Source of the DNA: a virus
Virus record (IMG/VR): IMGVR_UViG_3300037336_000053
Coordinates: 1-64,000 of that record
Length of the DNA stretch: 64,000 nucleotides
Reading direction: 5' to 3' (one strand)
Shown here: piece after piece, positions 43,845 to 60,705 of the stretch
Layout: the number at the start of each line of letters is the position of its first letter
Numbering within the stretch: position 1 is the first letter of the stretch
Notes under the pieces: generated by a model
Databases searched by the model: none
What the model saw: only the letters and a program-made list of their open reading frames with translations
Told to the model about the DNA's origin: nothing
Program-made: the position numbers and the translations under genes

Positions 43845-44837
43845 TTAGTCTCCAAAGTCAAACAAACTATTGAACGTGTTATGACTCTTAGTATCCTCTA
43901 ATGGATAGTTAAGCACACCGATCAAATTATCTAACTTATTATCAATAATTGTTTCTGCCATTGCTGCATCATCAAACGGAAGTTCTTTAAACCATTCAGG
44001 CATACGCAGCTCGTCTGTCGGATAAGCAACACTAGTGTACCCTAATGGATTCTGCTTGAGCTTACAAACAATAACTTTCATACCATCAACAATCTCCTGC
44101 GAGTATTTGTCACCATTCATACGCTTGAGTGTATTCCAGTTAATACTTGCCCTAACGTGTCCAGGCATATTAGCCTTGCCGGCTTTTTCTTCTAAGCGAC
44201 GATAATGTCCAACTTTGTTTGCACGTTTCGGACTACCTTTCTCCCAACCTGGCCGTTCACTAAATGCTAAACGAAATTGAGTAATACGTTCTAGCACATC
44301 AGTTTGCGGCTTATCTGTAAGTACCATAAGCAACAGCTCGCTTAAAAACTCTTGCATAAACACAGGAGTATCACTTCTACGTAAGTCTAAGCCCATGGCT
44401 TTTACTTTACCAGCTTTACCGTCTACGTCACTGCGGAAACCTTCTGTATCAATTACTAGAGCTGCATAACGCTTCTTAGTAATAAACAATCCGCTTTCTG
44501 CAACAATTTCACGACCTGCTGCAATAACAACACTTCGACTCTTTGGGCAATGGAATGATTTTGCCATCATATCTGGGAAGGTTATATTAGCTGCTTCTGA
44601 TACTTGATCGTAAAGTGTAATAACATTCTCTTTAGTCCAAGGAATATTGCCTGCCTTAATTTCATTTTGTAAAGTAGGCCAAGCACTAAAGTAGACCGAA
44701 TCTGTGTTATGAACCAAATGTCCATTTGCAAAGAAAAACGGATCGTCTTCGGCAATGCTTATATCATATACGTACTGGTCGCCTGTGTTTGGTATCTTTT
44801 CTACGCTTGCTACTCGTTGTCTTATTACTTCAGCCAT
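43845..44837 (-). CDS. polB: Family B DNA polymerase C-terminal fragment, preceded by a split-intein C-half
   Basis: After VHN comes TDSVYF, then KKRYAA, KAMGLDLRRSDTP and the thumb domain; AGGTG SD before ATG 44837. Confidence 0.9.
   Translation of the reverse strand: MAEVIRQRVASVEKIPNTGDQYVYDISIAEDDPFFFANGHLVHNTDSVYFSAWPTLQNEIKAGNIPWTKENVITLYDQVSEAANITFPDMMAKSFHCPKSRSVVIAAGREIVAESGLFITKKRYAALVIDTEGFRSDVDGKAGKVKAMGLDLRRSDTPVFMQEFLSELLLMVLTDKPQTDVLERITQFRLAFSERPGWEKGSPKRANKVGHYRRLEEKAGKANMPGHVRASINWNTLKRMNGDKYSQEIVDGMKVIVCKLKQNPLGYTSVAYPTDELRMPEWFKELPFDDAAMAETIIDNKLDNLIGVLNYPLEDTKSHNTFNSLFDFGD
44706..44837 (-). mobile_element. Split intein C-half (44 aa), Thr+1
   Basis: YVYDISI (block F), FFANGHLVHN/T (block G). 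Confidence 0.9.
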
Positions 44838-45769
44838 GTTATGCACCTTTGAATTATTGTTTTAGGATCAGCCAAATACTCTGACTCCCATATGATTAGT
44901 GTGTCTATGTTACGCTTATCTTTTAATGCTTGAATCTTCTTTGCATCTTTTTCCCATACGTGTCTTGCTAATAACTCAGATTGTGGATGATACCAGTTTT
45001 CAGCGTATTTGTTAGGATTGCAATGCCAGTAGTCGCCATTAAATTCTATTGCTTTGTCATTGTGTACAATGTCATAAAAGTTCGGCTTGTCATTTGCCCA
45101 AATGCAATATTGTTTCGTTTTGTAATAATAGCGCAATTCTTCTTCCAGTGCAGACATTATTTCATCAGCAAACTGCTTTTCTAAATTACTTGAATATTTT
45201 TCTGACTGTTTATAATTAGCAATTATATCTAGTGCTACTGCTTCATCACAGTTGTTTCTTTCCATTACTACATCTAGTGAGTGTGACTTTATTCTACACA
45301 CTTCATTGTACATGTCTGTACCAGTTGTAGTACCAAACTTTTCTATGAAATATTCCTTTGTGTTTGTGTATGCCTGTCTATCGCAATATGATTGCCATTT
45401 AATAGCACCTGTCACTTCACCGTGCCGTTCTATTAAGTTTTTTAATGTAACAGCTCTTGATTTATTATATTCATCAAAGTCGGCTTCGGTCCATCCATGT
45501 TTCTCTTGTTTGTATTGCAGCGTATTAGAATACGCTTGTTTTCTTTTATAATCATCCCATGCAGCTTGACCCTGCACTGTTCCGTATTTCTTTTGCATAT
45601 TAACCAGTGTGCAGGCTGTTGACTTAGCAAACTCATCGTCTACTAGTTTAGCATGGGGATATGCGATTTTGTATTCTTTACCGTTCTTAAACTTTCCAGT
45701 ACATTTATAAAAAAAATGTGTCCACTGTAATCTTTTTGCGACTGTGCCGCACTCTATACATTTTGGCAT
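44825..45769 (-). mobile_element. Free-standing Vsr/DUF559-like homing endonuclease between the polB halves
   Basis: IEFNGDYWH..IIWESE nuclease core, N-terminal C2 knuckle and repeated K(Y/H/F)G..G..W/Y motifs; own SD and TAAATA. Confidence 0.75.
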
Positions 45770-45834: not shown

Positions 45835-48006
45835 CTACTTAGCAAGAGTAATAACTAAATCATTTTCTTGTAAATCTGTTGCCTTTATTTCCAGTAAGAA
45901 CCCATCTCGGTCTATCATTAAACTGTGATCTTCTGTTACTGTAACCGACGTTCCGTCTTCCATTGTTACCTTGTATAATTGCTTAGAAGTTTTATGACGC
46001 ATAACATAGTTCATTTTAGAAATAGTAATTTTATCATTTAATGCATGGAATCCAAGTGTTGTAATGTCCGAGTCGTTAAACATTGCATATTCCTTTCCAC
46101 TAGGATGTAATACTTTATCCTCAACTGCATCAAACAAATCTTCAATTGCAATCATGCCATTTGATGTGTTAATCATCGAATCACCGGTAACGCTATCACC
46201 ATAGATAACAGCATCACCAACGTGATCGTAAACTCCAGTAATAACTTTATTAACTTCTGCACTCATATGCTTAACAATAGTACGACCAGTAAGTGTAGTT
46301 GACTGTCCAATACGCTTATCAAAGAAGCGGCAACCAGGGTTAAGAATAGCACCATACAAACTGTTAAGCAAAATCTTCTTAACTAGCTGACGTTTATCCC
46401 AATACTCAATCTCTGCCTTATTACCTGCATCCTTAGCTTTCTTCAGCTTTGCTTGTAACTCTTTACGTTCACCATACCAACGCTTTAGAATACCTGGAAT
46501 AACACCTTCAAACTCTTGTGTAAAGATTGTACCATTGCTACTAAGCATCCATGGATTATTACTGTCAAATACTAGTTTGTAAATCTCTGCTCCGCTCATT
46601 ACTTCAGACTGGCCGTTTTCAAACTCAATAGTAAGTGCAACATCTTTACGTTTGGCCATAACAGCATCGTATTCTTCTGTTGCAAAGCGACCTTCCCAAC
46701 TACCGGCGAAGCTCTGTTTCTTAAGACCCATGTCTTCTGCTACACGAGCTTCTGATATGTCTGGACGAATTTGTCCTACAAGAGTTTCTGGAGCCATATT
46801 TAACGCACGAATCACTGAAGGGTACAGTGAGTTCAAGTCCATTGACCCAATCCACTTGTGCAAGCCCTTCTTAGGGAACGCAACATATGCGCCAGCAGCT
46901 TGTGTATTTTCTTCGTCGTCTCTATTCTTACGATTAGGAACTTGCAAGCCCCTGTGATGCGCTTCGTTAATAATACCCTGTTCAGTAACAGCAACGGCAC
47001 CCATTGTAGTTTGAATAAGCACTGTATTCTCGTGTGCAATAGTATTGCTTAATTCAATAAAGCGCAGTTTCCTATCCAGCTTGTCCAGCAGCGCAGTATC
47101 TTGAATGTTATATTCAATAAACTTTTTAAAGTCATTGTTATAAAGTTGATCCAATGTACCTTCGTATGCTGTCTTGTTTTCACCTACTTCAATTTCACCA
47201 ATAGCATCTAGTCGATAGCTGTGGCGTTCTTCATAGGTATACTTACGATACAAGTTTAAACTGTCCAAGTGTACACGACCAATCAAGTCATATGTTTCGC
47301 TTTCTTTACCAAACTTTTCGTAAATGCGCTTCTTAGGCAACTGACCCCACAAGCAAAACCGTCTTGTGTCATCTTTACTTAATACACGAGCTACACGATT
47401 GACAGTGTAGGGAATATCATAGCCTTCGCTGTTCCAACCACTTATTACGTCGCTGTCTTCAATAATTGTTAAGAACGTGTCTAACATGTCCTTTTCTTTA
47501 GCAAACAGCATTACGTTAGGAATATCTTTAAGCAACTCAGTCGCAGCTTCCATTGTAAGTGTTTTAGGAGGCACTGCTAAACACACCATTGTTTCTAGCC
47601 ACTGCAAATAAACGGAGATAGACGTAATGCCCATAAACGGATCGCTAGGATCTGCAAAGCCGCGCTCTGGGTCAAAGTCTGTCTCAATGTCGAAAAATGC
47701 AATATTTAGTTTAGGTGCGTCTTGGTTAAGGTAGTTTTCACTTAGACACTGAAAGATTGGATTAATGTCGCTTTCAAACAGCGTTTTGTCTCGATTGATT
47801 GCAATTTCCTTGCGGAAGTCTTTTGTATTCTTAGATACAATACGACTCAACGGATCACCGTACACGCTCTTGTACTTGCCCTTTTGATCCTTATAGTAAA
47901 ATGTATATTTTACAGGTTGTTCACGGAATATTCTAGCTCCGTCTTTTCGTTCAACTATCTTGATCAGATCATGATCACGGTCGAAAAATGCGTCTACATA
48001 ACTCAA
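45835..48006 (-). CDS. polB: Family B DNA polymerase N-terminal fragment (exonuclease + palm) fused to a split-intein N-half
   Basis: FDIETD (ExoI), GWNSEGYD, YNIQD, DLNSLYPS (motif A), KILLNSLYG (motif B), YGD; TTG start with GGAGG SD. Confidence 0.95.
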   Translation of the reverse strand: MSYVDAFFDRDHDLIKIVERKDGARIFREQPVKYTFYYKDQKGKYKSVYGDPLSRIVSKNTKDFRKEIAINRDKTLFESDINPIFQCLSENYLNQDAPKLNIAFFDIETDFDPERGFADPSDPFMGITSISVYLQWLETMVCLAVPPKTLTMEAATELLKDIPNVMLFAKEKDMLDTFLTIIEDSDVISGWNSEGYDIPYTVNRVARVLSKDDTRRFCLWGQLPKKRIYEKFGKESETYDLIGRVHLDSLNLYRKYTYEERHSYRLDAIGEIEVGENKTAYEGTLDQLYNNDFKKFIEYNIQDTALLDKLDRKLRFIELSNTIAHENTVLIQTTMGAVAVTEQGIINEAHHRGLQVPNRKNRDDEENTQAAGAYVAFPKKGLHKWIGSMDLNSLYPSVIRALNMAPETLVGQIRPDISEARVAEDMGLKKQSFAGSWEGRFATEEYDAVMAKRKDVALTIEFENGQSEVMSGAEIYKLVFDSNNPWMLSSNGTIFTQEFEGVIPGILKRWYGERKELQAKLKKAKDAGNKAEIEYWDKRQLVKKILLNSLYGAILNPGCRFFDKRIGQSTTLTGRTIVKHMSAEVNKVITGVYDHVGDAVIYGDSVTGDSMINTSNGMIAIEDLFDAVEDKVLHPSGKEYAMFNDSDITTLGFHALNDKITISKMNYVMRHKTSKQLYKVTMEDGTSVTVTEDHSLMIDRDGFLLEIKATDLQENDLVITLAK
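45838..46194 (-). mobile_element. Split intein N-half (119 aa), Ser1
   Basis: YGD/SVTGDS (block A) and VTVTEDHSL (block B TxxH), then stop. Confidence 0.9.
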
Positions 48007-48888: not shown

Positions 48889-49488
48889 TTATTTTATAAA
48901 AGCGCCGATTCTGCCATGGACATCTGGATATTCACGATATGTGTATCCGTCGGGCGGTGTTGTGTCTTCGCCCTTCCAGACTGGAATAAAATGTTCAGTG
49001 TGTTCGTCGAAGTCTTCGTTGCGTCTAAGATGCACTTCGATTAGTTTGCCGCCTATAAATTCACAGTTGATCCATTTGTGTGGGTGAGATATAGAGTGCA
49101 ACATCTTGGGGAAAGGAATCACGTCATCTGTTCGAATCCATTCGTCCCAATGAGTAAATGTATCATCACTCTTTCGACCTTCTACACATAATTCTTGTGT
49201 ACCGTAAAAGTAGTCTATGCTGAGATGTCTACCTTCAAACCACTCACACCAGAAGTAACCGTAGGGCAAATTGCAAGTGTCTTTCTCAAGCCACATTTTT
49301 TCTGCACCCAGGCCTAGTCCCAGCATATTAACACAAGGGCGAACAATATAAAAGCCCGGATGCGGAACATCAAGACCCACTGGTCCACAGTTATATCGCA
49401 TTTTTCTACTTACAATTAGTTTGTCCATTACCCAAATTAAATCTGGGTCAATAGTCTGCCAAACAAAATCTTCGGCACTGTCTTCCAT
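48889..49488 (-). CDS. Hypothetical phage protein (possibly ATP-grasp-like)
   Basis: YIVRPCVN, FWCEWFEGRHLSIDY, INCEFIGGKLIEVHLR. Confidence 0.6.
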   Translation of the reverse strand: MEDSAEDFVWQTIDPDLIWVMDKLIVSRKMRYNCGPVGLDVPHPGFYIVRPCVNMLGLGLGAEKMWLEKDTCNLPYGYFWCEWFEGRHLSIDYFYGTQELCVEGRKSDDTFTHWDEWIRTDDVIPFPKMLHSISHPHKWINCEFIGGKLIEVHLRRNEDFDEHTEHFIPVWKGEDTTPPDGYTYREYPDVHGRIGAFIK

Positions 49489-49489
49489 A

Positions 49490-51448
49490 CTACATCTTAA
49501 CGCAGTTGTCTACAGTCTTGCCGTCCTTTTGTTTAGTGCCCATACGCTTGTAGCCCTTCCAGCATACCTTGCCGTCAACACCTTTTTGTTTTTCTTCGTC
49601 TAGCGTAGTATAACTAGGATTTCCGCATTCGCTACATGTTACATTAGTTCTTTTTTTTAAAGTTTTGTAAACACGTTCTGCAAGTTTTGCTGTGTAGTTT
49701 GATTCAACTACATCTTTTGCTCTAGTTAGAACGTTTGCTGTTGAGTTTGATTCTGCAAACTTCATATCATAATCTAGTGCATGATATACACTACTGATAT
49801 AGTCTGCTGCTTTAGTAATCTTTGCCTGCTGCCATCCTTCGATGCCTTCTGCTTCAGATACTGTTTTAAGCATATCGTGTAATTTAATAGCGTACTTTGC
49901 TAGTTTATATAGATCAGCACGAGCCATTTGCACTTCGTGATCACGCTCTGCTGCACTTGCTAAATCGCCTAGGCCTTCTTTAACTGTTTTCTTTTTCTTG
50001 TCAGCAACTGCCTTCTTCTCGATCTTGTATGTGCGGGGATTGACACGATATTGACTCATGTCCTCACCTTCAGCATCACGCTGTCTTAATTCCTTGTGAG
50101 CTGCATCAAGGTTCTGTTCGTGTGCTTCTTTTGCACGGCGATTGCGAGCTGAGTCGCTTTGGTCACCCTCCGCCATACCTTGCCCACTAGACATTGCATA
50201 GTCTATGTCGTCGGGATGTAAATATCCGCTTTTTAAATCAGACATAATTTGCGCTTTTTCTTCTTCTCGGCGTTTTGTAAGCATGTGCCTTGCACCAAGC
50301 CAATCTAAATAATCTTCTACCATGTCATCAACTGGGTTATTTGTATTTCTGCCCCCCACCACACCTTGCTCGTCATTGCTTTGCCAAACTACATTATCGG
50401 TTGAGTCTTTGACTTCAATAGTGGCATACACATACTGCGGAAAGTCTTCTAACCAGTCTTCGCTCCAGAGTATGGCATCATCCTCACGACGGAATTTTTT
50501 AGTTTTGGTTCTTGATTTAGGACGCTCACCAGTGTTGACCACTGCGGTGAACGGACCGTTGAATCCACTACCAAACGAACCTTCCGCCACACCCTGTGAT
50601 TCCTCTAGTTCCCATACCACGCCACCGTTGTCATCTTTTATTTCCATCTGGAGGGTTGGATATTGGTCGTGTGTGTCAGCATAGTCTTCTGCCCAGGCCA
50701 CAGCATCATCTTCACGCTTAAACTTTTTGGTCTTGGTCTTGGTTGGTGGCTTCTCGCCGGTGTTGACATATAGAGTAAACACCCTGCCATATCCTGAACC
50801 AAACGAACCTTTCGCCACACCTGTCTTTGGCTCAAATACTGTAGGGTAATTAGTCTTGCGATTGAATACGCCCACTGTATCACCTTGACTATTTTTAGCA
50901 ATAATACTGTCTACTGCTCCGCTGCCTTCTTGACGATTTCTAAATTTGACATCGGCACCGTGATCTTTGCGAACTTGATTGGCCCATTGTCTGACTCCAC
51001 CACCAACGCCGCCCTCTGCCACTTTATCAGTATATGCGCCGCCTTTAAACTTACTAACACTTTTAGCATCGTGCTCTTTAGCTTGACGTCTGGCATCAGC
51101 ATCATCCTTAGCAGTAAACTTCATCTTTGAACCATCTGAATGTGTCATTTGATACTTGTGTTTCACACCTTTGTGTTCCGCCACACCATCTAAAGCACTG
51201 GTAATTTTGTTTATCTGCTCAGGAGTTGCTCTATTGCCCACAGTAGTAAACTGATCGTGGGTTGTTTCCCAATCCGAGCCTTCTTTGACTTCTTCGGAAT
51301 ACTTGTCGTATTTTTTTCTAATAGGATCAAGACTTTTACCTTCTTTACCAGCTTTAGCTAGTGCTTGCATGCCTTCTTTGCCATACTTCTCATGGCCCTT
51401 AGCAGCACGGCTCATAGTCTTATCAGCTTCTTTAACTTGTTTTATCAT
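49490..51448 (-). CDS. Modular putative internal-head polyprotein with GVAEG-delimited cassettes
   Basis: Repeated (G)VAEG-like junctions, two 76-aa paralogous modules, C-terminal DHEVQMAR.. and CWKGYKRMG..NCV modules; late promoter at 51476-51481. Confidence 0.7.
   Translation of the reverse strand: MIKQVKEADKTMSRAAKGHEKYGKEGMQALAKAGKEGKSLDPIRKKYDKYSEEVKEGSDWETTHDQFTTVGNRATPEQINKITSALDGVAEHKGVKHKYQMTHSDGSKMKFTAKDDADARRQAKEHDAKSVSKFKGGAYTDKVAEGGVGGGVRQWANQVRKDHGADVKFRNRQEGSGAVDSIIAKNSQGDTVGVFNRKTNYPTVFEPKTGVAKGSFGSGYGRVFTLYVNTGEKPPTKTKTKKFKREDDAVAWAEDYADTHDQYPTLQMEIKDDNGGVVWELEESQGVAEGSFGSGFNGPFTAVVNTGERPKSRTKTKKFRREDDAILWSEDWLEDFPQYVYATIEVKDSTDNVVWQSNDEQGVVGGRNTNNPVDDMVEDYLDWLGARHMLTKRREEEKAQIMSDLKSGYLHPDDIDYAMSSGQGMAEGDQSDSARNRRAKEAHEQNLDAAHKELRQRDAEGEDMSQYRVNPRTYKIEKKAVADKKKKTVKEGLGDLASAAERDHEVQMARADLYKLAKYAIKLHDMLKTVSEAEGIEGWQQAKITKAADYISSVYHALDYDMKFAESNSTANVLTRAKDVVESNYTAKLAERVYKTLKKRTNVTCSECGNPSYTTLDEEKQKGVDGKVCWKGYKRMGTKQKDGKTVDNCVKM
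50366..50821 (-). repeat. Two tandem 228-bp (76-aa) paralogous modules
   Basis: GVA(K/E)GSFGSG..VNTGE.P...KTKKF.REDDA..W.ED..; units start at 50821 and 50593. Confidence 0.9.
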
Positions 51449-51478
51449 TGTAATCTCCAGAATACTTATTATGTATAT

Positions 51479-51697
51479 TTATCGTTTGATGGTCGAGCCA
51501 CCCATTAAATTGTTTGATAGCTCAAGTGCATTTTTAGCAGTACCGTCTGCATTTTTCTTTTGTGGAGCTTCTGGAGTACCATTTTTACCAGTTTTAATCT
51601 TCTGACGTGCGGCAGGAGGGTTAGCAACTGTTGCTATAGCACCTGCACTTGTAGCGCCTGCTGTTGTTGTTTCATTTACGATATCTGATATTTTCAT
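51479..51697 (-). CDS. Small putative internal-head protein
   Basis: MKISDIVNE tag; ETTTAGATSAGAIATVANP. Confidence 0.6.
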   Translation of the reverse strand: MKISDIVNETTTAGATSAGAIATVANPPAARQKIKTGKNGTPEAPQKKNADGTAKNALELSNNLMGGSTIKR

Positions 51698-52410
51698 TTC
51701 TTTTTAGCCCTGCCAGCTTTCATATTAGCAAGCCAATGTGCCATCTTTTGCTTTTCGCCACTGCTGTTCTTAGCAGTCTTTCTTAAACTGCTAACACTTG
51801 CTTTAGTATTTACACCACTACGCTTGGCCAATCCCTTACGTCCTGGCTTCTTGCCATCTGCAAAGTTTTCATTGTGTGCCGCTTCTGCATAGTATTCGTT
51901 ATCAGGAGATGCATCATCAGTGCTGTCGGGCCACCAGTCTAATTCAAACTGTTCTCCAGCATCAAACATGTCGTGCATAGAGTTAATACGGTTTTCGTAT
52001 TCTAGTTTTGACGGCTCAACGTTGCCTTCTACTACATCAATAACATATTGTATTGTTACTGCATTGGCAGTCAATGTAGCACAGCGTCCGCCTACTTCAC
52101 CTTTGAGGTGATCTACTAAAATGCTTTCACTACTTCTTGCTAGATCATCTGTTAGATTATGAGGCACTTTCATGTCAACATATGAATAAACATAATCGTA
52201 ATGTGGCGATGGAGATGTGTGTAATATAAATTCATCTAATACCACAACTCTTTTAAATCCATCCTTGTTATACCAAACAGCTCTTTTAAAAGTTAACTCG
52301 TCTGGTGCTCCAAAGAACTTTGTAAGATGTTTTACATAGTCAACTGGTTCATCATTTTTCCATTGCGATAACGCAGTCGGCGATTCGGCTAAAATTTCAT
52401 GTATTTTCAT
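51694..52410 (-). CDS. Putative internal-head protein (two modules)
   Basis: MKIHEILAE tag; C-terminal basic ENFADGKKPGRKG..MAHWLANMKAG module. Confidence 0.6.
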   Translation of the reverse strand: MKIHEILAESPTALSQWKNDEPVDYVKHLTKFFGAPDELTFKRAVWYNKDGFKRVVVLDEFILHTSPSPHYDYVYSYVDMKVPHNLTDDLARSSESILVDHLKGEVGGRCATLTANAVTIQYVIDVVEGNVEPSKLEYENRINSMHDMFDAGEQFELDWWPDSTDDASPDNEYYAEAAHNENFADGKKPGRKGLAKRSGVNTKASVSSLRKTAKNSSGEKQKMAHWLANMKAGRAKKK

Positions 52411-53576
52411 AAACTTGCTACAATTGTTTTATAATCGTCAAAGTTACTTTCACGATCTTCTAGGCCGCGCAAGCCCGGATTAATAGGCTTAGTAACATCT
52501 CTAACATTACTAAAGTCATCAACATTCGGTTGTACTCTAAGTTTCCAGTACCAAATAGCAATTTTTGCAGCAACAGACGGTTTTTCTGCTAGCTTAGGAT
52601 TATTCACTAGATCTATGCCAATTGCGTTTCCGGCAATACCGTAGTTATATCTGCCGGTGATTTGAATGTATCCGCGACCTTTGTACTTTGCGCCATCACC
52701 TGCTTTAGTATTACCTAATATTTTGGCTTTCCTAGGAGCATACTTAGGATCATACTTGCGGAAGTCTAAACTGCCACCATATTCTACCATGCTCTTAAAG
52801 TCGTGACTTTCATGAGCAACTTGCGATAAGAATGCAGCAAGTTCTGTACCTTTAATTCCAGCAGCGGTAGCAGTTTTAATTAAAAACTTTTCGTGTGCAT
52901 TGATCGTAATAGGTTCATCTTTTTTAACTTGAGGCTTTTTGGCCTGTGGGGTTTCTTCTTCAGCAGTATCCGGAACTTTTACCATTTGACCTAATTGCAG
53001 TTTGGTATTTTGATCAAACCCATTTAGCTTGTATAGTACTGCTGGAGTAGTATCATTTTGTCTAGCAATAGAATAAACAGTATCACCTTTCTCAACAGGT
53101 TGTTGGACAATGTTGCCAGCATTGGCGCCTAAGGTGGCAGCTCCTAGTGTAGCTCCTGCTACCCAATCTTTCCATCCTTCCTCTACATCAAATTCTTTGC
53201 CTTTAAGTTTAGTACCTGTATATTGTTGTACAATTTTCCAAACTTCTTTGTCTTTCTTTTGCTTAATCAGTTGTTTAACTTGTGTAACTAAATCACTAGG
53301 CGCAGTTGAGAAAAATTTCATCAACTCCATTATACCTATGTTACCTTCATAAGACGCTTCTAGTTGTCTTATACGACTTTCACTAAGTCCTAGATTAAAT
53401 AGCACATTAGTTGACTTGCCTTTTACCTTTTTGCTTAGTGTAGGCGGACGTCCGTCTTTGTCTACGGTGTTGCCAAACTTAGCTGCTTGAGTTTTGATTT
53501 CACCAGAGCCCACATCTACAGTAGTGTTAACACCTTTTACAATTCTGCCATCTTCAAATATTTCACGTAATCTCAT
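52407..53576 (-). CDS. LysM + GH19 peptidoglycan hydrolase with N-terminal head-protein modules
   Basis: LysM VEKGDTVYSIARQ; GH19 FLSQVAHES, GDGAKYKGRGYIQITGRYNY, AIWYW; MRLREIFE tag. Confidence 0.85.
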   Translation of the reverse strand: MRLREIFEDGRIVKGVNTTVDVGSGEIKTQAAKFGNTVDKDGRPPTLSKKVKGKSTNVLFNLGLSESRIRQLEASYEGNIGIMELMKFFSTAPSDLVTQVKQLIKQKKDKEVWKIVQQYTGTKLKGKEFDVEEGWKDWVAGATLGAATLGANAGNIVQQPVEKGDTVYSIARQNDTTPAVLYKLNGFDQNTKLQLGQMVKVPDTAEEETPQAKKPQVKKDEPITINAHEKFLIKTATAAGIKGTELAAFLSQVAHESHDFKSMVEYGGSLDFRKYDPKYAPRKAKILGNTKAGDGAKYKGRGYIQITGRYNYGIAGNAIGIDLVNNPKLAEKPSVAAKIAIWYWKLRVQPNVDDFSNVRDVTKPINPGLRGLEDRESNFDDYKTIVASL

Positions 53577-53782
53577 TTCTTGCGTCCTCTAAATTGCTCA
53601 CCTGTTAGGTAGGGTTTGGAGAACCAAAGTTGAAACCATTCTTTATCACCTGGGCGTATATTTTCTTTGCGTTGTATCTCAGCTTTTTCGGTTCCAGTAA
53701 TACTTATGTTACTGCCACCGTATGGAGTTAGCCCTTTGAACTCGTTGATGCCGGCAAGTTTTTTAAGGGTATCTAAATCCAT
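53573..53782 (-). CDS. Small hypothetical protein
   Basis: LKKLAGI, IRPGDKEWFQLWFSKP; coupled at both ends. Confidence 0.65.
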   Translation of the reverse strand: MDLDTLKKLAGINEFKGLTPYGGSNISITGTEKAEIQRKENIRPGDKEWFQLWFSKPYLTGEQFRGRKK

Positions 53783-54375
53783 TACTTCTTGACCACACCT
53801 TCCGCTGGTACTGCATCTCTAATACCCATACCTTGTCTAACAGCAGCATACATTTCATCTGCAACTTCTTGTTGTGGCACACCTTGTTTAAATGATTCTA
53901 AATCACCTTCAGCAGCCGCAGCTCGCATCTTACTTGCACTCATGCCCTCGGCACCATCTGCATCTGGATCACGTTCGCCTGCACTTACTACTTTAATTGA
54001 TTTAAAATTATATTCTTTACCGTTGTAATCGTTTAATAGTTTTTCAAAACTTGCAACACGATCGCTACCTGCAACATAGATTAAATTATCATAACCTAGT
54101 GCGTCAATTTTTTGTAGTGCTTGTATAATAGTTTTAACTTCAGGATTACCAATTGTAACCTCTGGAAAGAAAAACTTTGCATAGCGTAGTTTATCCTCAA
54201 ATGCTAGTGGATCTGTTTTAGGCTTTTGACTTTGGCTTAAAAAAATATAAGGATCACCACCTTGTGATACAACCGCATCTACTAGTTTAGCATGCCCGAT
54301 AGTAGGTGGGTTCATACGACCAAATGCCATTACCGCAGTTGTTTCGGGTGCTTCAAATATTTCTCTTAATCTCAT
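53782..54375 (-). CDS. Cytidylyltransferase-like (HxGH) nucleotidyltransferase
   Basis: FGRMNPPTIGH, VAGSDR, GMSASKMR; MRLREIFE tag. Confidence 0.8.
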   Translation of the reverse strand: MRLREIFEAPETTAVMAFGRMNPPTIGHAKLVDAVVSQGGDPYIFLSQSQKPKTDPLAFEDKLRYAKFFFPEVTIGNPEVKTIIQALQKIDALGYDNLIYVAGSDRVASFEKLLNDYNGKEYNFKSIKVVSAGERDPDADGAEGMSASKMRAAAAEGDLESFKQGVPQQEVADEMYAAVRQGMGIRDAVPAEGVVKK

Positions 54376-54716
54376 TTGTAGTCACCTTGTTTAATTTCGT
54401 CTATACCTTCACCAAATAGTTTGTCAAGTAGTGCATCTCTGTCTGCTTGACTAAACACATCCTCTGGTGAATGTCCTAGATCATATTCTGCACAGTAGCG
54501 ATTAATACCTTTTTCAACTACTGGACCTAAATGCTTTTTACGATCAATGTCTTTGCCTGCACGGTGTAGATCAGCAATACGACTCATTACAGGAAAAAGT
54601 TCTTTGCGATAAAACTGTGGATCATTACGCATCCAAACACTAGTGTCATCGACTAGATCATAACCTAGGTCTTTATCGTCTTTTTGATCTATCTCAGTCA
54701 CTTCAAATATTTTCAT
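54372..54716 (-). CDS. Hypothetical protein with N-terminal tag
   Basis: MKIFEVTE tag; AGGAG SD. Confidence 0.7.
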   Translation of the reverse strand: MKIFEVTEIDQKDDKDLGYDLVDDTSVWMRNDPQFYRKELFPVMSRIADLHRAGKDIDRKKHLGPVVEKGINRYCAEYDLGHSPEDVFSQADRDALLDKLFGEGIDEIKQGDYK

Positions 54717-57316: not shown

Positions 57317-57985
57317 CTATTTATCAATATTTGTATTGTATACTAATTTGTCTATTCGCGACAGTTTACCAACAAATAAATTTAATAGTTGTATTATCTT
57401 ATCATCTCTAGCATAAAAATACATACCTCGAACGTAACCTCCGCGTTCGATAGTTTCTAAACACGTATTACCTGCTTTAACTTTGTCAGAATTATTTCTA
57501 ATCCAGTTGGCTAAATTTTTATCACAAGAATACCCCAATGTAACTTTATATAGATAGTCGGCAGGGCGATTAACTAAAATAATATTTTTATCCAGTATAG
57601 ATACGTTACCAGCTTTGGGTTCCCATAGTTCTTTAGAAGATTTAATCTTTAAAGCTAGCATCGCTAACCAATCGTAATTATGTGAGTATATTTGCATATA
57701 TGGATTAGATATACGAAGTTTAAAATCACGTTGTTTACAAAACTCTATGTAAATATTTTTAGCTTCAAAGAATGTATCAAGGTCAACTGGATACTTATAT
57801 CCATACGAGCCCCTAACAAGGGGCTCGTTTGAATCGTATTTTTGTTGTAATACATCTAGTTCTTCTTTCGCATTTGAAAGATTTTTATCTCTAAACAAAT
57901 ACGAAAGTCCGTTTACTACAACTAGTTTATATAGATACTCGTCATAAAACAGTTTAGTAGTTTCACACTTGATCAACAGTTTCAT
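57317..57985 (-). CDS. Hypothetical protein
   Basis: Start at ATG 57985 inside the clpA 3' end; KLFYDEYLYKL. Confidence 0.65.
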   Translation of the reverse strand: MKLLIKCETTKLFYDEYLYKLVVVNGLSYLFRDKNLSNAKEELDVLQQKYDSNEPLVRGSYGYKYPVDLDTFFEAKNIYIEFCKQRDFKLRISNPYMQIYSHNYDWLAMLALKIKSSKELWEPKAGNVSILDKNIILVNRPADYLYKVTLGYSCDKNLANWIRNNSDKVKAGNTCLETIERGGYVRGMYFYARDDKIIQLLNLFVGKLSRIDKLVYNTNIDK

Positions 57986-60203
57986 TAACTTCCACCTTGA
58001 GTACAATAGCATTGTCAACTACATCAATAGTCAAATTGCCTCCGTCTTTAAGTTTTCCAAACAGTAGTTCTCTTGCAAGTGGCATTTTAATTTCTTTATC
58101 AATAACACGTTGCAACGGACGAGCACCCATCTTAGGATCAAATCCTTTGTCTACTAAGTAGTCAAGTGTTTCGTCAGTAATAGAGATTTTAACACGTTTG
58201 TCTTTAACTTGGTCTTTAAGTTCAACAAGGAACTTACCAACAATTTTAAGCATGATCTCTTTACCAAGTTTAGCAAATGTAATCACACCGTCTAAACGAT
58301 TGCGGAACTCTGGACTAAAGAATTTCTTAAGAGCTTTATCTTCGTAAGAATTATCTTGGAAGTCTCCGCCGAAGCCGATGCTATTCTTCTCTGAATCAGC
58401 AGCACCTAAGTTAGTAGTAAGGATTAGTACACAGTTACGTGCGTCTGCTTCTTTACCATTAGATCCTGTGATCTTACCATTGTCCATAATTTGCAACAAA
58501 ATTTGACTAACATCAGGGTGTGCTTTTTCAATCTCGTCTAGTAGTAATACACAGTTAGGATTTTCTTGCAACTTAACAATAAGTTGTCCTGCACTATCTT
58601 CGTGACCAACATATCCTGGAGGCGACCCAATCAGCTTACTTACACTGTGTTTCTCTTGATATTCACTCATATCAAAGCGTACAAGTTTAACACCTAGGTT
58701 AGTAGCAAGTGCTTTTGCAGTTTCAGTTTTACCTGTACCAGTTGGACCCATAAACACAAAACTACCAATAGGCTTGTCTGCTGATTTTAACCCTGCTTGT
58801 GCAACAAGAATCTTATCAACAATACTTTCAACTGCCTTATCTTGCCCGTATACTTGACGTTTGATGTTACGTTCAAGATTAGCAAGATTTTCAGTTTCTC
58901 TTTCGCTTACTTGTTCTTCAGGCAAGTTAACTGCTTTAGCAAGTTCGTATTGGATCTCAAATGCATCCACAATTTTATCACCGATTACTTCTTTCAGATT
59001 AAAACGTGAACATGCTTGGTCTATTAAATCAATTGCTTTATCAGGCAGCTTCTTATCTGCTTGATATTTTACTGAAAGTTTAATTGCTTCGTCAATCGCT
59101 GCTTCAGTAATAGTAGTTTTATGATAGTCTTCGTAATACTTTTTAAGACCAAGCAAGATATCTTTAGTCACACTTGCTGTAGGCTCATCAACTGTAACAC
59201 GTTGGAATCGACGCATCAATGCACGATCCTTTTCAAAGTACTTGCGATATTCTTCCCAAGTGGTAGATGCAACAACTTTAATGTTACCTTTGCTCAATGC
59301 AGGTTTTAACATGTTAGCAAGGTCATTAGCACTATTACCTCCGCCCGCGCCTGCTCCGCTAATCATGTGTGCTTCGTCAATAAACATAATAGTTTTGCCT
59401 TTTTTCTTTAAGGCTTGAAGGACTAGTTTAAAACGTTCTTCAAAGTCACCACGATATTTACTACCAGCAAGCATACTACCAATGTCTAGATTATAAACAT
59501 TGTAGTCTTGTAGGAATGCAGGAACAGTTTTCTGTTCAATATTAAATGCTAGGCCTTCTGCAATAGCAGTTTTACCTACACCCGGATCACCAACTAGCAA
59601 TACGTTGTTTTTATTACGACGACCTAATGCAAGAGCAATTGCATCCAATTCTTCTTTACGTCCAATAACTGGATCAATAGTTTTCTTTTTAACTTCGTCG
59701 TTGAGATTAGTTGTAAATGATCGCAGAGCTTTAGCTGCTGCACCGCTCATTTCTTCTTCTTCTTCGACTTCCACTTCGCTACTTAGATAGCTAGCAAACT
59801 TATCCTTGACAATACCTGCTTGATCACAGTAGAATGCTGCGTGGGATTTCTTCTCACTGATAATGCTTAACATCACATCGCTTAGTTCAATATGACTACG
59901 ACCATTAAACAGCGTCTGTGTAAACGCACGATTCAAACAGCGTTCGACAGTTTGTGTCTTCTTAGGTTTAAATTTTTCAACTTCTGTTTTAATGTCGTCG
60001 CAACTATTTTTTAGATAATGTTCTAGATTAGATTTTAGATAATCAGGATCAGCACCGAACCCTTTAACTAGATTGTAAAAGTTTTCACTGCACAACATTG
60101 AGAACAACAAATGCTCTAGTGTAACATATTCATGTTTTAATTTCTGAGCATCTTTGACAGCCTTATCAAATACTAGTTGTAGATCTTTACTTGGTTCAAC
60201 CAT
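57963..60203 (-). CDS. clpA: ATP-dependent Clp protease ATP-binding subunit ClpA
   Basis: HEYVTLEHLL N-domain, two Walker A motifs (GDPGVGKT, GPTGTGKT), RFDMSEY, IGSPPGYVG, GARPLQR. Confidence 0.95.
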   Translation of the reverse strand: MVEPSKDLQLVFDKAVKDAQKLKHEYVTLEHLLFSMLCSENFYNLVKGFGADPDYLKSNLEHYLKNSCDDIKTEVEKFKPKKTQTVERCLNRAFTQTLFNGRSHIELSDVMLSIISEKKSHAAFYCDQAGIVKDKFASYLSSEVEVEEEEEMSGAAAKALRSFTTNLNDEVKKKTIDPVIGRKEELDAIALALGRRNKNNVLLVGDPGVGKTAIAEGLAFNIEQKTVPAFLQDYNVYNLDIGSMLAGSKYRGDFEERFKLVLQALKKKGKTIMFIDEAHMISGAGAGGGNSANDLANMLKPALSKGNIKVVASTTWEEYRKYFEKDRALMRRFQRVTVDEPTASVTKDILLGLKKYYEDYHKTTITEAAIDEAIKLSVKYQADKKLPDKAIDLIDQACSRFNLKEVIGDKIVDAFEIQYELAKAVNLPEEQVSERETENLANLERNIKRQVYGQDKAVESIVDKILVAQAGLKSADKPIGSFVFMGPTGTGKTETAKALATNLGVKLVRFDMSEYQEKHSVSKLIGSPPGYVGHEDSAGQLIVKLQENPNCVLLLDEIEKAHPDVSQILLQIMDNGKITGSNGKEADARNCVLILTTNLGAADSEKNSIGFGGDFQDNSYEDKALKKFFSPEFRNRLDGVITFAKLGKEIMLKIVGKFLVELKDQVKDKRVKISITDETLDYLVDKGFDPKMGARPLQRVIDKEIKMPLARELLFGKLKDGGNLTIDVVDNAIVLKVEVNETVDQV

Positions 60204-60705
60204 TTGCATGTTCCTTTATTAATTTCTTTTGTTTCTTTTTAGCCATTGATAATTTTAATTTACTTGTTCTATCAGTAAATTCAATTCCTTGAAGATGATC
60301 ATATTCGTGTAAGAAGCAACGTGCATCTATCCCACTAAACTGTAGTATACACTCTTTTGCATCAATGTCAAGAAACTGCGCCACCAAACGTTTAGGTCTA
60401 TTAACATTTAATATTAATCCTATGTGACTTAAACATCCTTCTTTCCCTGTAACTGTGTCTTCGCTAATTTCTAATATAACAGGATTAATTACTGCAAAAG
60501 GTTTAGTAACTTCTGCATGTTCAACGGGTCTCATAACAAAAATCTGTGCATCTAATCCAACTTGATTAGCAGCAAGCCCGAGGCCATTCTTTGCCATCAT
60601 TATTTGACACATCTCTCCGGTAATTTGTTTAGCATCCATTGTTTCAAATTCAAAAGGTTTTACAGCCTTGTTTAAAAAATCATTAGGAGAGCTTATTAAT
60701 TTCAT
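60196..60705 (-). CDS. def: Peptide deformylase
   Basis: [21 protein letters not shown]. Confidence 0.95.

Follow-up and report, generated by a model that had tools for sequence, protein, structure and literature searches.

We analyzed a 64-kb window of viral DNA, the first 64 kb of the 123,362-bp IMG/VR contig IMGVR_UViG_3300037336_000053, and found that an open reading frame (ORF) of 652 amino acids (aa) on its minus strand (49490–51448, stop codon included) is a chain of small modules split by six in-frame junctions. Comparison with related genes shows that such cassettes are exchanged at a junction whose DNA is fixed. The reading that we favor, and to which we give a probability of roughly 55%, is that the ORF encodes a capsid-loaded polyprotein that would be cut after the glutamate of its junctions, with the junction word doubling as an in-frame recombination point. 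Within it, cutting by a head protease and delivery through the capsid are well-motivated predictions, drawn from the junction motif and from the genes that accompany such arrays. On sequence grounds the gene is assigned to an uncultured marine clade of giant T4-related phages.

Translation of the ORF places the six junctions exactly where an initial annotation of this DNA had put them, and it returns the same module sizes (54, 68, 76, 76, and 62 aa), plus a head and a tail piece, so that the chain reads 87, 54, 68, 76, 76, 62, and 229 aa. The linker consensus is Gln-Gly-Val-Ala-Glu-Gly, and its general form is (Q)G-V/M-A-E-(G). The head piece (aa 1–87, 51188–51448; all coordinates of the chain are on the minus strand) is of family F7, common to the homologues P0002 and P0004, and opens with a possible short leader, MIKQVKE (51428–51448), which ends V-K-E. 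Junction 1 (GGT GTG GCG GAA CAC, GVAEH, aa 88, 51173–51187) begins cassette 1 (51026–51187), a basic 54-aa module (pI 9.7) of family F2, which is found at other positions in P0004, P0036, and P0056. Junction 2 (AAA GTG GCA GAG GGC, KVAEG, aa 142, 51011–51025) begins the basic 68-aa cassette 2 (50822–51025, pI 10.1), which also forms a single-cassette gene in P0134 and P0136. Junction 3 (GGT GTG GCG AAA GGT, GVAKG, aa 210, 50807–50821), which has lost its Glu, and junction 4 (GGT GTG GCG GAA GGT, GVAEG, aa 286, 50579–50593), a canonical QGVAEG, begin the two acidic 76-aa cassettes 3 and 4 (50594–50821 and 50366–50593), paralogues a and b of the commonest cassette family. Junction 5 (GGT GTG GTG GGG GGC, GVVGG, aa 362, 50351–50365) has lost both Ala and Glu and begins the acidic 62-aa cassette 5 (50180–50365). 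Junction 6 (GGT ATG GCG GAG GGT, GMAEG, aa 424, 50165–50179) leads into the 229-aa tail piece (49493–50179), with a widely shared helical module at about aa 470–566 and a Cys-rich C-terminal motif.

The predicted products would be two basic proteins of 6.1 and 7.3 kDa and three acidic ones of 8.5, 8.6, and 7.1 kDa. Clustering bears out the earlier claim that two modules are paralogues and the others unrelated: the 76-aa pair shares 53% identity and the remaining cassettes fall into separate families. A Pfam search of the ORF gave no family, and Pfam and PHROGs searches of the ORF and several relatives gave no informative one, the only matches being DUF3008 and DUF6321, both in other members. 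An AlphaFold2 (AF2) model of cassette 4 (mean confidence score, pLDDT, 75) is a compact strand-strand-helix-strand-strand fold in which the junction residues 1–11 are disordered. The fold search with this commonest cassette gave no significant match; among its best compact hits are the anti-CRISPR AcrIF9 (Z 4.5) and the T4 antitoxin Dmd (Z 5.1, root-mean-square deviation 2.5 over 55 aa), and because these hits tie with many unrelated small alpha/beta folds we take them as a lead only and claim no function. An anti-defense role of the cassettes is so far unsupported.

A word-indexed search with the 652-aa protein returned more than 1520 partial homologues, most of which span 8–30% of the query at 60–95% identity. 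Among the best 120, GVAEG occurs 74 times and GMAEG 14 times, with up to six per protein. Clustering of the pieces obtained by splitting these proteins at the motif showed the same cassettes in differing orders and with differing partners. For instance, P0002, which is 72% identical to the ORF, differs from it in cassette content only by missing the 62-aa cassette, P0004 carries the 54-aa cassette in two copies, and the 76-aa cassette is found at variable positions in proteins from 95 to 1042 aa. Over all fetched loci there are 79 distinct genes with at least two junctions, and their 184 internal cassettes, which make up 151 families with a median of 72 aa, are all joined at (Q)G-V/M-A-E-(G). 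Single-cassette genes also occur (P0134, P0136, P0139, and P0160), built as a leader, Q-GVAE, one cassette, Q-GVAE, and a tail of 2–4 basic residues.

Exchange at the junction is visible between close strains. The strain contig L002 matches the 652-aa gene at 99.8% over nt 1–440 and at 99.1% over nt 853–1959, and carries one unrelated 62-aa cassette in place of the two cassettes at aa 147–285, exactly between junctions 2 and 4: on the left side homology stops inside KVAEG, and on the right side it picks up at CA(A/G)GGTGTGGCGGAAGG. DNA matches of at least 85% identity between 18 polyprotein genes have 98 internal ends, 65% of which fall within 12 nt of a G-V/M-A-E core, compared with 5% of random positions. 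Since the contact between unrelated cassettes always falls exactly on the motif, it must be there that the joints themselves arose. These results show cassette exchange at a DNA-fixed junction, and the comparison of orthologues that the initial annotation had proposed came out as it had expected, in that relatives differ by the gain, loss, duplication, and reordering of cassettes exactly at the motif. Rearrangements also happen outside the junction word, as seen in the 99% relatives P0003 and P0122, where a deletion fuses head-piece residue 32 to the second 76-aa cassette at a non-canonical joint, ...LAKTEGSFGSG.

The conserved junction DNA is CAAGGTGTGGCGGAAGG, about 17 nt long, with information content at background on either side. 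In the window, GGTRTGGCGGARGG has 15 matches with up to 3 mismatches where 3.8 are expected (0 of 100 shuffles reached 15), and five of the seven matches with up to 2 mismatches are junctions of the 652-aa ORF. The exact 11-nt core GGTRTGGCGGA is present in three copies in the 123-kb contig, all within this ORF; the junction protein motif is in no other ORF of the contig, and a search for orphan cassettes carrying the junction word elsewhere in the contig found none. The initial annotation had rightly remarked that the junctions keep GTG and GCG in an AT-rich genome. GTG accounts for 12% of Val codons and GCG for 7% of Ala codons in the long ORFs of the contig, and within the 652-aa ORF Ala is written GCG at four of five junction positions versus 1 of 53 elsewhere.

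We then took a census of 69 junctions, each flanked on either side by sequence distinct from that of the others, using the same ORFs as background. Gly is encoded by GGT in 64/69 (93%, background 0.40), Val by GTG in 53/58 (91%, background 0.21), and Ala by GCG in 55/69 (80%, background 0.077), while Glu shows no GAA/GAG bias (GAA in 50/69, background 0.78). Binomial P values for the codon bias range from 1e-20 to 1e-48, figures that overstate the independence of the junctions. Silent positions are thus conserved over 69 unrelated contexts, the synonymous-site conservation that the initial annotation had suggested looking for. As an internal control, NVLFNLGLAES, a conserved motif of the neighboring lysozyme family, is encoded by ordinary AT-rich synonymous codons. 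We also compared the GTG/GCG word with its GTA/GCA synonym in viral contigs; among the matches listed, whose make-up can be compared though their totals cannot, Gln precedes the word in 88/160 cases versus 5/124 for the synonym, and an ORF with at least two junctions is present at 51/120 loci versus 4/119. The GTG/GCG word marks cassette arrays in viral contigs and the GTA/GCA synonym does not. The initial annotation had argued for nucleotide-level conservation from the junctions that lose Glu and keep the DNA pattern; the loss of Glu stands (GVAKG and GVVGG), but the argument built on it is weak, as these joints are only one or two point mutations from the consensus.

Codon choice of this kind could reflect a role in mRNA or translation, in which the rare GCG and GTG codons and a Shine-Dalgarno (SD)-like GGAGG or GGAAGG slow the ribosome for folding, or GTG and ATG serve as internal starts. 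In line with this idea, 64/69 contexts have a start codon, GTG or ATG, as their second junction codon (the remaining 5 have GTA), no Ala codon is rarer than GCG, and 19/69 junctions read GGAGG. However, no purine-rich SD is conserved upstream of the GTG (less than 0.5 bit from −15 to −5), the SD-like part sits downstream of the putative start, and GGT, the commonest Gly codon, is fixed equally strongly, which selection for slow codons does not predict. We consider a translational role very improbable, and internal starts at the junction GTG/ATG were rejected because of the lack of a conserved upstream SD.

A second explanation, which takes up the integron-like system of the initial annotation, is a true site-specific system in which a nuclease or recombinase dedicated to the 17-nt word, or a Chi-like hotspot activity of the word itself, drives integron-like capture of cassettes. 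The conservation of silent sites is very strong and ends sharply outside a stretch of about 17 nt, and this sharpness keeps the idea of a dedicated enzyme alive at low probability; genes of homing-endonuclease type (NUMOD3, GIY-YIG, TnsA-like) also lie within a few kb of some arrays. Against it, these endonuclease genes vary from locus to locus, the word is non-palindromic and confined to polyprotein genes, and no free cassettes were seen. Moreover, no tyrosine recombinase (PF00589) was found on the 123-kb contig, which is incomplete, with all control genomes matched; no integrase is listed among the neighbors of nine other arrays; and neither inverted repeats nor attC-like palindromes were found in 49400–51500. 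Integron cassettes are separate promoterless ORFs, and here the cassettes are fused in one frame. With these three defining features absent and the conserved DNA only about 17 nt long, the arrays are not an integron, and "integron-like" applies by analogy only; the integron mechanism was rejected for want of an integrase and of palindromes. We judge cassette capture by a true site-specific system unlikely. A long shot, too, is the proposal that a dedicated phage enzyme recognizes the word, or that the word is a hotspot of recombination, and that the arrays form an in-frame "protein integron" with which giant T4-type phages assemble and exchange libraries of capsid-delivered effectors, anti-defense proteins among them. 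In that case, one sequence would carry two codes, serving recombination as DNA and the protease as protein.

Under the reading that we favor, the word CAAGGTGTGGCGGAAGG would instead be a short-homology patch for the phage's own T4-type recombination. Such recombination is very active, and small patches of homology suffice for it (PMC2839356). Recombination between any two copies of the word, in one gene or between co-infecting phages, would delete, duplicate, insert, or swap whole cassettes, and the reading frame and cut sites would survive each exchange. Because every new joint starts out with the word in its canonical form, rapid turnover of cassettes could by itself maintain the rare GTG and GCG codons, with neither a dedicated enzyme nor selection at the DNA level, and old joints would drift away from that form, as KVAEG and GVVGG may have done here. 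This turnover explanation of the codon constancy fits the data but is not proven, and short-homology recombination by the phage explains the data at least as well as an integron-like mechanism does.

The closest known system in evolutionary mechanism is the shuffling by promoter-early stem-loop (PeSL) elements in T4-type phages, in which a repeat provides the homology for cassette insertion, deletion, and replacement, and which its authors liken to integrons (Arbiol et al. 2010, PMC2839356). The PeSL is about 100 bp, intergenic, and regulatory, with a sigma-70-like promoter and a stem-loop or terminator, and it moves whole genes (PMC2839356). As with PeSLs, a short conserved repeat between accessory units bounds the cassette differences between close strains here, seen both in the L002 swap and in the clustering of homology ends at junctions. 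Unlike PeSLs, the repeat is about 17 nt, coding, and in frame, it encodes a peptide motif, and it moves protein modules; given the length, intergenic position, and regulatory role of PeSLs, the junction word is not one of them. Unrelated cassettes split by a conserved exchange boundary are likewise found in integrons and in the loci of polymorphic toxins, where a conserved pre-toxin motif (VENN in CdiA, for example) forms a boundary that is also in frame and coding. The arrays differ from both in having no integrase, attC, attI, immunity genes, or orphan cassettes, and in being one translated chain whose boundary is a predicted protease site. The junction motifs of polymorphic toxins are a looser analogy.

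At the protein level, the junction resembles the sites cut by head proteases. The T4 protease gp21 cuts after L/I-X-E and its giant-phage relatives after S/A-X-E (PMC9026906). At the junctions, P3 is Val, Met, or occasionally Leu, and P1 is Glu in about 90% of cases. In relatives of this phage, alignment with a T4-type gp23 predicts the capsid-protein site as YLAE↓S or YLSE↓A, the sole aliphatic-x-Glu just before the conserved mature N terminus; the known T4-type gp23 site is LTE↓AEIGG. The scaffold protein of these relatives also has several IAE and VAE sites. The junction thus fits a T4-type head-protease site, as the initial annotation had proposed, although the points that support cutting are circumstantial. 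They include the presence of Peptidase_S77 (T4 gp21) and gp23 on the same contigs as arrays (G001, G006, G009, and G010, the last three with multi-junction arrays and one of those three 300 kb long and 81% complete), and leaders on neighboring genes that resemble the T4 capsid-targeting sequence (CTS). Many members of the polyprotein family open with a CTS-like leader themselves, e.g., MKSFNQFIAEG.

If GVAEG were a mere flexible linker, the chain would be one uncut, multidomain protein of the beads-on-a-string type, with real shuffling but no protease. Two junctions of this gene have lost Glu and the gene is not decayed, and the AF2 model shows the linker as disordered, which would be expected of any linker. 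Yet Glu is near-invariant over hundreds of junctions, P3 is always aliphatic or Met, and the arrays co-occur with the S77 protease and CTS-like leaders. In addition, a lone cassette with junctions on both sides and a tail of 2–4 residues is pointless for a plain linker and hard to explain unless both ends are trimmed. We regard an uncut chain as unlikely, while giving it as much weight as any alternative considered here. Cutting could also take place in the cytoplasm, by another protease, with the cassettes acting in the producing cell and being neither packaged nor injected. A large Clp/Lon-type ATP-dependent protease is indeed encoded nearby (57963–60209), but AAA+ proteases do not act as sequence-specific endoproteases, the motif follows the rule known for gp21, and the CTS-like leaders and late-promoter-like sites point to loading of the prohead. 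Cytoplasmic cutting has, in our view, little probability.

Based on the favored reading, we propose that the ORF is one gene of a hypervariable capsid-cargo operon in a T4-related marine phage of about 350 kb, and that it encodes a seven-piece chain with at least five small, independently folding cassettes joined by the disordered linker (Q)G-V/M-A-E↓G. The chain would be expressed late and enter the prohead with its leader-bearing neighbors, in the way of T4 internal proteins. A T4-type Peptidase_S77 would then cut after each junction Glu to release proteins of 6–9 kDa, which would stay in the head and enter the cell along with the DNA. The GVAKG and GVVGG joints, having lost Glu, would remain uncut in this phage and leave two pairs of cassettes fused.

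Several observations weigh against this reading. Glu is missing at two of the six junctions, which indicates that cutting at every joint is not essential. The N terminus of the polyprotein, MIKQVKE, fits a T4 CTS less well than the leaders of the neighboring genes do. No head genes were found on the contig, which CheckV estimates to be 35% complete, and neither was Peptidase_S77; as the contig is incomplete and lacks the head genes, the phage's own prohead protease is not seen. Third positions at orthologous junctions of the 76-aa cassette vary somewhat (GCA, GTA), such that the junction word is strongly favored but not immutable, and the word is absent from the close relatives G002 and G003 and from the nearest isolate, Sinorhizobium phage Phosso. 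Finally, 14–17 nt is short for homologous recombination, and a swap between close strains such as that in L002 could stem from crossovers in the long flanking homology rather than from the 17-nt word.

The closest known system in function would be the internal proteins (IPs) and Alt of T4. IPI, IPII, IPIII, and Alt carry a capsid-targeting sequence that is removed by the gp21 prohead protease (PMC9026906, PMC8442874). Like them, the neighboring genes and many relatives of the polyprotein have a short N-terminal leader ending in aliphatic-x-Glu, to which the polyprotein's own N terminus is a weaker match, and the junctions have a predicted Peptidase_S77 cut after Glu; the products are small, and the locus is nonessential and highly variable. 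The cassettes measure 54–76 aa, and processed T4 IPI* is, according to the initial annotation, about 76 aa. As with Alt, enzymes (a lysozyme and a nucleotidyltransferase) are apparently addressed to the head. Unlike T4 cargo, which is encoded by separate genes with one or two cuts each, up to ten unrelated cassettes are strung in one chain with a repeated, near-identical site, and the DNA of the predicted cut site is fixed at silent positions. Membership in the IP/Alt class cannot be claimed, because cleavage and packaging are inferred and the contig carries no head module. In the giant phages phiKZ, 201phi2-1, and SPN3US, a gp21-related protease processes a large number of head-internal or ejection proteins, cutting after Glu at short motifs (PMC9026906, PMC5694885, PMC7411985). 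Their motif is S/A-X-E, and their proteins form conserved paralogue families, unlike the exchangeable, unrelated cassettes found here. We know of no DNA-level junction word reported for processed proteins of the phiKZ type. A full-text search of the literature found no phage paper with the GVAEG motif, and further searches brought up no work on polyproteins of this kind or on the clade.

If the favored reading holds, these phages would follow a simple grammar, a leader and then cut sites alternating with cassettes, to load changeable small proteins into the capsid, and the DNA word would permit the exchange of whole cassettes with the reading frame and cut sites intact. This would be a new route to the fast evolution of functions of the first minutes of infection, such as counter-defense or host takeover, and a clear example from nature of selection acting on one short sequence at both the DNA and the protein level. 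It would also open up at least 151 unexplored families of small proteins and provide a design rule for packaging foreign proteins in T4-type capsids.

With 35% completeness, the genome of this phage is expected to be near 350 kb. Its family B DNA polymerase, of T4 type, is 84–85% identical to those of G002, G003, and G004 and 69% identical to that of G001, all of them relatives to which the polyprotein had led. In G001 and G002, a Peptidase_S77 prohead protease is followed by the scaffold protein and then by the gp23-type major capsid protein, so that a relative with 84% polymerase identity (G002) also encodes S77 and gp23. Among isolates, Sinorhizobium phage Phosso (469 kb) comes closest in its capsid protein, at 73% identity. 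The polymerase (45835–48006 and 43845–44846, minus strand) is split by an intein (Pfam Intein_splicing) at the YGDTDS motif, apparently into two ORFs.

The T4 capsid-targeting sequence is MKTYQEFIAE (PMC8442874). Five adjacent genes directly upstream of the polyprotein, all on the minus strand, have leaders that resemble it. They encode a 72-aa protein with the leader MKISDIVNE (51479–51697), a 238-aa protein with MKIHEILAE (51694–52410), a 389-aa protein with LysM and GH19 lysozyme domains (52407–53576) and a 197-aa cytidylyltransferase-like protein (53782–54375), both of which use MRLREIFE and were annotated with Pfam and PHROGs, and a 114-aa protein with MKIFEVTE (54372–54716). The first four were the sole matches of a regex scan for leaders in the 123 kb of the contig; the fifth leader was read by eye. 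After its leader, the 72-aa protein has TTTAGATSAGAIATV, which is close to the predicted mature N terminus of the gp23-type capsid protein of relatives, SATAGATSAGNVATL (L060:1150–2319). A TTTAGATSAGAIATV-type motif also follows the leader in P0081 and P0093, and it may be a second prohead-interaction signal.

The cytidylyltransferase-like protein ends in PAE↓GVVKK (53782–53810, minus strand), encoded by GCGGAAGGTGTGG, a permuted copy of the junction word, and this end resembles a terminal cut site with a short basic tail, like that of the single-cassette genes. The metagenomic protein P0112 joins a cytidylyltransferase, whose leader is MFLRQLFE, to the product of a downstream cargo gene that still bears its own internal leader, MRSKEFTPAEKPRNFVAKNA..., which indicates that polyproteins can also grow by joining neighboring leader-bearing genes. 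The Clp/Lon-like protease mentioned above, of 748 aa and on the minus strand, matches phrog_4871 (E 5e-249) and lies about 6.5 kb upstream of the candidate cargo operon.

ATAAATA is the core of T4-type late promoters. A copy of it lies 28 nt upstream of the polyprotein ATG (51476–51482, minus strand), which is weak evidence for late expression. Counting both strands, the window has 13 copies where about 35 are expected, a deficit that would fit avoidance of a T4-type late promoter core at other sites. Several copies sit just upstream of gene starts (24496, 51476, 55513, and 57318, minus strand).

In a collection of phage isolates the polyprotein has no close relative, and only its last 34 aa or so match hypothetical proteins of cyanomyophages, which are without leaders; the Cys-rich C-terminal motif of the tail piece is thus also present in cyanomyophages. 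In Cyanophage S-RIM32 (L319, 150311–150991), the motif CWKGYKRMGTK...DNCVKM is found in a leaderless protein of 226 aa encoded two genes downstream of a cytidyltransferase. The shared Cys-rich motif suggests an old common accessory locus.

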